A DNA stretch of 64,000 bases from the NCBI RefSeq assembly GCF_003334785.1, contig NZ_QOWV01000002.1. One strand, written 5' to 3'. Below are positions 40,745-40,820 of this stretch, piece by piece (within the stretch, counting starts at the first letter, position 1; the number at the start of each line of letters is the position of its first letter). The notes beneath the pieces were generated by a model. That model saw only the letters and a list, made by a program, of their open reading frames with translations, did not search any database and had not been told where the DNA came from. The DNA comes from Escherichia coli (lineage in GTDB: Bacteria > Pseudomonadota > Gammaproteobacteria > Enterobacterales > Enterobacteriaceae). A program made the position numbers and the translations under genes.

Positions 40745-40820
40745 GGGGCTATAGCTCAGCTGGGAGAGCGCTTGCATGGCATGCAAGAGGTCAGCGGTTC
40801 GATCCCGCTTAGCTCCACCA
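40745..40820 (+). tRNA. alaX: tRNA-Ala (anticodon GGC)
   Basis: GGGGCTATAGCTCAGCTGGGAGAGCGCTTGCATGGCATGCAAGAGGTCAGCGGTTCGATCCCGCTTAGCTCCACCA; anticodon loop AUGGCAU. Confidence 0.95.

Follow-up and report, generated by a model that had tools for sequence, protein, structure and literature searches.

Introduction

The tRNA-Ala(GGC) reads GCC and GCU codons. In Escherichia coli K-12 MG1655 the intergenic region between yfeC and pdeA holds alaX and alaW, two identical 76-nt genes for this tRNA with 39 nt between them; the preliminary description of the DNA studied here had rightly given K-12 a tandem alaX-alaW pair. E. coli strains differ in their tandem tRNA arrays, and cells that lose both alaWX copies survive but grow more slowly (PMC4539685, PMC11480407). 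The slow growth of E. coli without both copies was seen in minimal medium (PMC11480407), and Salmonella, which also has alaWX, grows slowly when both copies are removed (bioRxiv 10.1101/2024.04.04.588050).

The exact tandem-Ala pattern is found in 70 species representatives, mostly Enterobacterales, many of them on short-read NODE_-type contigs. The tandem Ala pair is old. Here we describe a 64-kb stretch of E. coli DNA (64,000 nucleotides, referred to as the window), where a single tRNA-Ala(GGC) gene lies at this position and the array of tRNA-Val and tRNA-Lys genes on the other side of gltX is reduced as well.

Results

The single alanine tRNA gene is an intact transcription unit

Exactly three tRNA genes are identified by ARAGORN in the 64-kb window, Lys(UUU), Val(UAC) and Ala(GGC), and the Rfam tRNA model RF00005 matches all three. 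The Ala gene (40745..40820, plus strand) aligns to the full length of the model with 63 bits, where the gathering threshold is 29, and it forms a cloverleaf with the anticodon ggc at position 34. In the acceptor stem, as read from the sequence, 5' GGGGCUA pairs with UAGCUCC, which is followed by ACCA; the 3' CCA is encoded in the gene, and G3 is opposite U70. The G3:U70 pair is an identity element of AlaRS. The 76 nt show 100% identity to both K-12 copies, alaW and alaX, and the gene is flanked by yfeC (40165..40524, minus strand, named from the ORF list and the annotation of homologous loci) and pdeA (41029..43218, plus strand, L53Q relative to MG1655) just as in K-12, i.e. the position of the alaW/alaX orthologue is kept. 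The Ala gene is real and no chance match.

Upstream of the gene, a consensus scan identifies a sigma-70 promoter-like site, TTGACA-17 nt-TATGAT, at 40684..40712 on the plus strand, matching the consensus at 11 of 12 positions. The site is identical in a K-12 derivative and corresponds to the promoter region of the K-12 alaWX unit, so we take it as the putative promoter of tRNA-Ala. Downstream, a terminator scan finds an intrinsic-terminator-like hairpin and T run at 40828..40861 on the plus strand (hairpin and T run also given as 40828-40851), with a stem of ten pairs, six of them G-C, followed by TTTTGTCTCT. This hairpin is the sequence found 3' of the second copy, alaX, in K-12. The Ala gene of the window is an ordinary, intact transcription unit of the alaWX type, in which the tRNA lies between a putative sigma-70 promoter and a terminator-like hairpin.

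One repeat unit is missing compared with K-12

The order gltX - yfeD - yfeC - tRNA-Ala - pdeA - nupC is the same in the window and in K-12, and the tRNA, the promoter-like site and the terminator are identical. However, K-12 has two copies where the window has one, and the 39-nt spacer between the copies, AATTTTGCACCCAGCAAACTTGGTACGTAAACGCATCGT in two-copy arrays, is missing. The preliminary description had reported one tRNA-Ala(GGC) in place of the tandem alaX-alaW, and ARAGORN, Rfam and the K-12 alignment all confirm this. When aligned to the K-12 derivative the window lacks exactly 115 bp, i.e. one 76-nt tRNA and one 39-nt spacer. The gap is clean, both of its sides are 100% identical to the derivative, and no flanking base is changed.

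The site of the loss is an 81-nt segment (the tRNA and AATTT) at 40745..40825 on the plus strand, where the two BLAST pieces of the alignment to MG1655 overlap. In relatives with two copies this segment is a perfect direct repeat, and the two 81-nt repeats, 34 nt apart, flank the unit that is lost in the window.

The Val/Lys array is reduced and has a different spacer

A similar reduction at the Val/Lys locus had been noted from the sequence and holds up: the window has one Val and one Lys gene, compared with valU-valX-valY-lysV in MG1655. On the minus strand, ARAGORN and Rfam place the single tRNA-Val(UAC) at 37970..38045 and the tRNA-Lys(UUU), the lysV equivalent, at 37891..37966. There are three Val copies at this locus in MG1655, H3, HSP425 and C2566, two in BW25113, JP538 and UMNF18, and one in the window; the Val-Val spacers of multi-copy arrays are ACTACTTTATGTAGTCTCCGCCGTGTAGCAAGAAATTGAGAAGT and CTTTCTCGCCAGCTAAATTTCTTGTAAAAATGTGAAGTACCGAAGT. 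Val copy number differs also within K-12 lab stocks, as BW25113-type K-12 (L001 2049-2246) has two Val genes with the 46-nt spacer type versus three in MG1655 (L003 30932-31249).

The Val and Lys genes of the window are separated by a 3-nt spacer, CTC, at 37967..37969 on the minus strand (GAG on the plus strand), found by direct comparison. In relatives the valY-CTTC-lysV junction is CCACCACTTCGGGTCG, and CTTC is present at the lysV locus in MG1655, JP538, HNSQ2209, HSP425 and L082/L083/L088. Compared with JP538, HNSQ2209, HSP425 and the same three contigs, the window has a 1-nt gap at this spacer. In the lysT operon the paralogous valZ-lysY pair is separated by CTC, and the Val and Lys genes of that operon are identical to those at the window locus. 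The lysT-valT-lysW-valZ-lysY-lysZ-lysQ operon itself, at the cpoB-nadA locus, contains five or seven tRNAs in differing arrangements in the complete genomes L097, L098, L099 and L103-L106.

Downstream of lysV, MG1655 has a repeat with a 156-bp period that consists of the terminator and the 3' end of tRNA-Lys and is labelled 'RtT sRNA' by PGAP (L003 31312-31527). The terminator/partial-Lys segment duplicated in this repeat occurs as a single copy in the window, at 37848..37908 on the minus strand. The repeat is present in MG1655, H3 and UMNF18 and absent in the window, JP538 and HSP425. Its absence is common: of the 5,426 complete genomes, 3,243 match the inner unit at some place and 2,183 (40%) do not match it at all. 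All tandem features of the homologous K-12 region are thus minimal in the window: Ala goes from two to one, Val from three to one and the 156-bp repeat from two to one. Each loss comprises only whole repeat units and leaves the flanks unchanged (115 bp for Ala, two units for Val, one for the 156-bp repeat). A search with TRF for a further large tandem repeat to use as an internal control yielded none, either in the window or in the corresponding part of MG1655.

Single-copy Ala is a rare natural allele

The collection consisted of 5,426 complete E. coli genomes, all of which are matched by a 2-kb query around tRNA-Ala. A 119-nt query spanning the Ala-Ala junction, required to be covered at 80% or more, was found in 5,293 of these, and 133 (2.5%) are without it. 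Each of two Val-Val junction queries is covered in 5,400 genomes, and at most 26 (0.5%) are without any Val-Val junction. About 138 and 218 records for the two Val-Val queries fall in the band of 80-90% identity, which we read as two-copy arrays with one spacer type left. Should the two losses be independent, the expected number of genomes that combine single Ala with single Val is about 0.6 among the 5,426; one was seen, HNSQ2209, and it is without CTC.

The 133 single-copy genomes are known as a count and through individually found examples, and the search ranks one- and two-copy genomes alike. Among the examples JP538, UMNF18 and 23CRST001 have one Ala and two Val, DEF10 has one Ala and three Val, and HNSQ2209 has one of each with the native 4-nt Val-Lys spacer. 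UMNF18, JP538 and HNSQ2209 are K-12-like, 99.975% identical around the locus and one SNP from the window in 4 kb, while the flanks of DEF10 are only 96.1% identical to the window. As DEF10 and the K-12-like genomes differ in background, the loss arose in at least two backgrounds. Further, several single-Ala genomes keep more than one Val copy, which shows that tRNA repeats were resolved in their assembly. A single Ala copy is a genuine allele of a minority of strains, and it has arisen in at least two unrelated backgrounds. Recombination between direct repeats is an established mechanism of deletion, and we would expect a natural loss to occur by deletion between the 81-nt direct repeats. The viability data and the low frequency of 2.5% fit a single-copy state that is tolerated but selected against.

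These five natural genomes have the same clean 115-bp loss as the window. However, they have the native 4-nt Val-Lys spacer where it can be read, most of them have two or three Val genes, and none carries the 41186A of the window; conversely, the 41186A carriers H3 and HSP425 have two Ala copies. A shared single-Ala clade that includes the window is unsupported, as the allele signals conflict: 44763T is shared with UMNF18, H3 and HSP425, 41186A with H3 and HSP425, and 35066A with HNSQ2209.

Close relatives of the window carry full arrays

Along its entire length the window is colinear with MG1655 2,493,511-2,558,709 in reverse orientation, from eutA to frc, at 99.97% identity, with the gene order xapR, Lys-Val, gltX, yfeD, yfeC, tRNA-Ala, pdeA, nupC around the loci discussed here. 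Among the 60 best-ranked complete RefSeq genomes there is no single-piece match to window 37780-40870, the part that spans both tRNA loci. The window therefore probably stems from a draft or non-RefSeq assembly. Three look-ups of the spurious ORF specific to the single-copy junction gave no match.

The strain HSP425 (L083) is 100.000% identical to the window over 35387-49218, except for an extra Ala unit, two extra Val units and the 1-nt difference in the Val-Lys spacer; over the full 64 kb there are 11 differing sites. H3 shares 41186A (PdeA L53Q) and 44763T with the window, has 7 differences from it in 41.6 kb, and carries two Ala, three Val and the 156-bp repeat. The contigs L082-L088, like H3 and HSP425, carry the full Ala pair. 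Among the displayed contigs that encode the exact PdeA protein of the window, Ala is present in two copies in 7 of 7 and Val in three copies in 6 of 7.

Two nonsynonymous differences from MG1655 were recorded in the window. PdeA L53Q (window 41186) is a common allele and is also found in H3 and HSP425. LpxP A245T (window 61134) is rare, with 21 contigs on record, and marks the lineage of the window. It is the only lineage-specific protein marker and lies 20 kb from the Ala locus, beyond the 10-kb flank. Two Logan contigs match the window at 100% identity, SRR7042024_87 over 50946-64000 and SRR28811438_77 over 57164-64000; the Logan contigs of the same lineage begin at window ~46,077 or later, short of the Ala locus. 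CP164094.1, a complete genome with LpxP A245T, belongs to a different lineage (98.5% identity).

MG1655 carries IS186C between pdeA and nupC and the CPZ-55 prophage between eutB and eutA; the window, like its natural relatives of phylogroup A, has neither. A 12-nt overlap of the BLAST pieces at window 43236-43247 marks the IS target site, and the CPZ-55 site is at 650-680. Elsewhere in the window, two segments of about 140 nt, 9795-9933 and 20716-20857, match each other's MG1655 loci in inverted orientation at ~89% identity and are probably intergenic repeats of the REP/BIME type.

The CTC spacer at the lysV locus accompanies aberrant arrays

A 141-nt query consisting of the lysV-type flank, Lys, CTC and part of Val was used to count full-length exact matches in the complete genomes. 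There are ten, seven at the lysT operon and three at the gltX locus. The latter are only AS19-RrmA- (CP027430), BL21(DE3) CP081489 and BL21-RIPL CP083273, all with the lysV-type flank joined to Lys-CTC-Val as in the window. With seven of the ten matches at lysT and three in aberrant B strains, we rejected CTC as a polishing error or as a common natural variant at the lysV locus.

At the gltX locus AS19-RrmA- (L096, NZ_CP027430.1) carries one Val and the CTC spacer, exactly as the window does, but in contrast to the window it retains two Ala copies. It has 3 genome-wide matches to the Val/Lys query compared with a median of 8, which suggests that the Val/Lys arrays of this 'complete' genome are globally collapsed. 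In the BL21(DE3) and BL21-RIPL records the Val is joined to a different chromosomal region, rrf/mobB or mobB and not gltX, unlike in the window. The junction stems either from misassembly or from a rearrangement across tRNA repeats. One of these two records (L100 NZ_CP081489.1, L101 NZ_CP083273.1) has an 80-nt 'tRNA-Val'. C2566, which belongs to the same clonal B lineage as the three CTC assemblies, has three Val and the 4-nt spacer. In the reference collection, CTC at the lysV locus accompanies structurally aberrant arrays, all in E. coli B lab strains, whereas the window belongs to a phylogroup-A lineage.

Discussion

The preliminary description had named assembly collapse or a strain difference as worth checking. 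Both are real possibilities, and the full arrays of the relatives together with the CTC spacer make the evidence lean to collapse. We consider that the missing Ala copy is probably a product of assembly and that the true genome is likely to have two tandem copies. In such a collapse the assembler would merge the 81-nt perfect repeat into one copy, walking from flank to repeat to flank and skipping the loop of the 39-nt spacer. The same process would shorten the valUXY-lysV array to one Val, and the path through the Val and Lys repeats would take the CTC edge of the paralogous valZ-lysY pair. An assembly graph would offer such a flank-Val-CTC-Lys-flank path if the Val and Lys nodes were common to both operons. 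Sequence of a paralogous copy at a collapsed site is found at the Val-Lys locus only, as CTC; the GGC gene has no paralogue, and the Ala locus is for that reason without an internal mark of misassembly.

What we observe is the loss of exact units, a borrowed spacer and full arrays in sequence-identical relatives, and from this we infer that the assembler rather than the cell is the likely cause. The case for collapse as the NEVERTHELESS better explanation here is strong, although it falls short of a demonstration. Several observations speak against it. A clean recombinational deletion would give an identical sequence at the Ala locus, and single-copy Ala is real in genomes that keep their arrays, with three Val in DEF10 and two in JP538, UMNF18 and 23CRST001. 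HNSQ2209 has one copy each of Ala and Val, but its Val-Lys spacer is the native one of 4 nt. AS19-RrmA-, the one informative collapsed assembly, kept both Ala copies, and in other Enterobacterales the tandem Ala pair is resolved in many assemblies from short reads (NODE_-type). The change from CTTC to CTC is formally one T deletion, and the absence of the 156-bp repeat needs no artefact, as relatives of the HSP425 type are without it too; the window has probably inherited this state. The alternative, that the single copy is real, would have recombination or replication slippage between the 81-nt perfect direct repeats remove one 115-bp unit. The remaining gene would then combine the alaW promoter with the alaX terminator, the gene dosage of tRNA-Ala(GGC) would be halved, and the cmo5U34 tRNA-Ala(UGC) genes would support the decoding of GCC and GCU. 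The Val array would have contracted separately, possibly by one ectopic gene conversion from valZ-lysY that also explains CTC. We regard a real loss of the Ala copy as rather unlikely, but several observations speak for it: the 133 of 5,426 complete genomes without the tandem junction, from at least two unrelated backgrounds, the multi-copy Val arrays retained in several of the single-Ala genomes, the combination of single Ala and single Val in HNSQ2209, and a window lineage that is a real, repeatedly sampled clone. Moreover, E. coli and Salmonella survive the deletion of both copies and grow slowly only in certain conditions (PMC11480407; bioRxiv 10.1101/2024.04.04.588050), so losing one copy should be tolerated.

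Against a real loss, two or three independent structural events and no SNP would be needed relative to HSP425-type sequence over 13.8 kb, and base rates put the joint state at less than one in 5,000 genomes. Further, CTC is found at the lysV locus in no natural complete genome examined, and the relatives with the rare alleles of the window have full arrays. The fuller version of this account, a natural clone with contracted arrays, is a shade more doubtful than the Ala loss taken by itself: one ectopic conversion from valZ-lysY in the lysT operon, ~1.7 Mb away, would have replaced valU-valX-valY-CTTC-lysV by Val-CTC-Lys, and alaWX would have suffered an independent deletion. Explanations other than collapse or real deletion are, taken together, very improbable. 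One of these, an engineered or reduced lab strain from which redundant tRNAs, IS elements and prophages were removed, would be in keeping with a window that lacks IS186C, CPZ-55 and all tandem tRNA redundancy compared with MG1655 and yet is 99.97% identical to it. However, IS186C and CPZ-55 are equally missing in the natural isolates JP538 and HSP425, and IS186C also in H3, where the fetched region ends short of the CPZ-55 site. In addition, about a dozen scattered differences separate the window from MG1655, several of them common to natural isolates, the lineage marker LpxP A245T appears in several independent sequencing runs, and no scars or recoding are visible in the window. We therefore give engineering hardly any weight at all. 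A reduced genome such as MDS42 was rejected given the natural isolates without IS186C and CPZ-55 and the pattern of shared SNPs.

Assembly collapse, the reading that we prefer, matters for quality control, as an artefactual copy loss would make tRNA gene counts and tRNA-adaptation indices derived from the assembly too low. CTC at the lysV locus may serve as a cheap, sequence-only flag for mis-traversed Val/Lys repeats. For the biology of E. coli the locus holds nothing new, as the tRNA is the known alaW/alaX product and its copy state reflects an artefact or else a rare polymorphism that is already documented; no new question arises in either case. If the contracted arrays are true, the window would come from a natural clone in which two abundant tRNAs are encoded at lower dosage, and a real loss of the Ala copy would be one more case of a known, mildly deleterious copy-number polymorphism.
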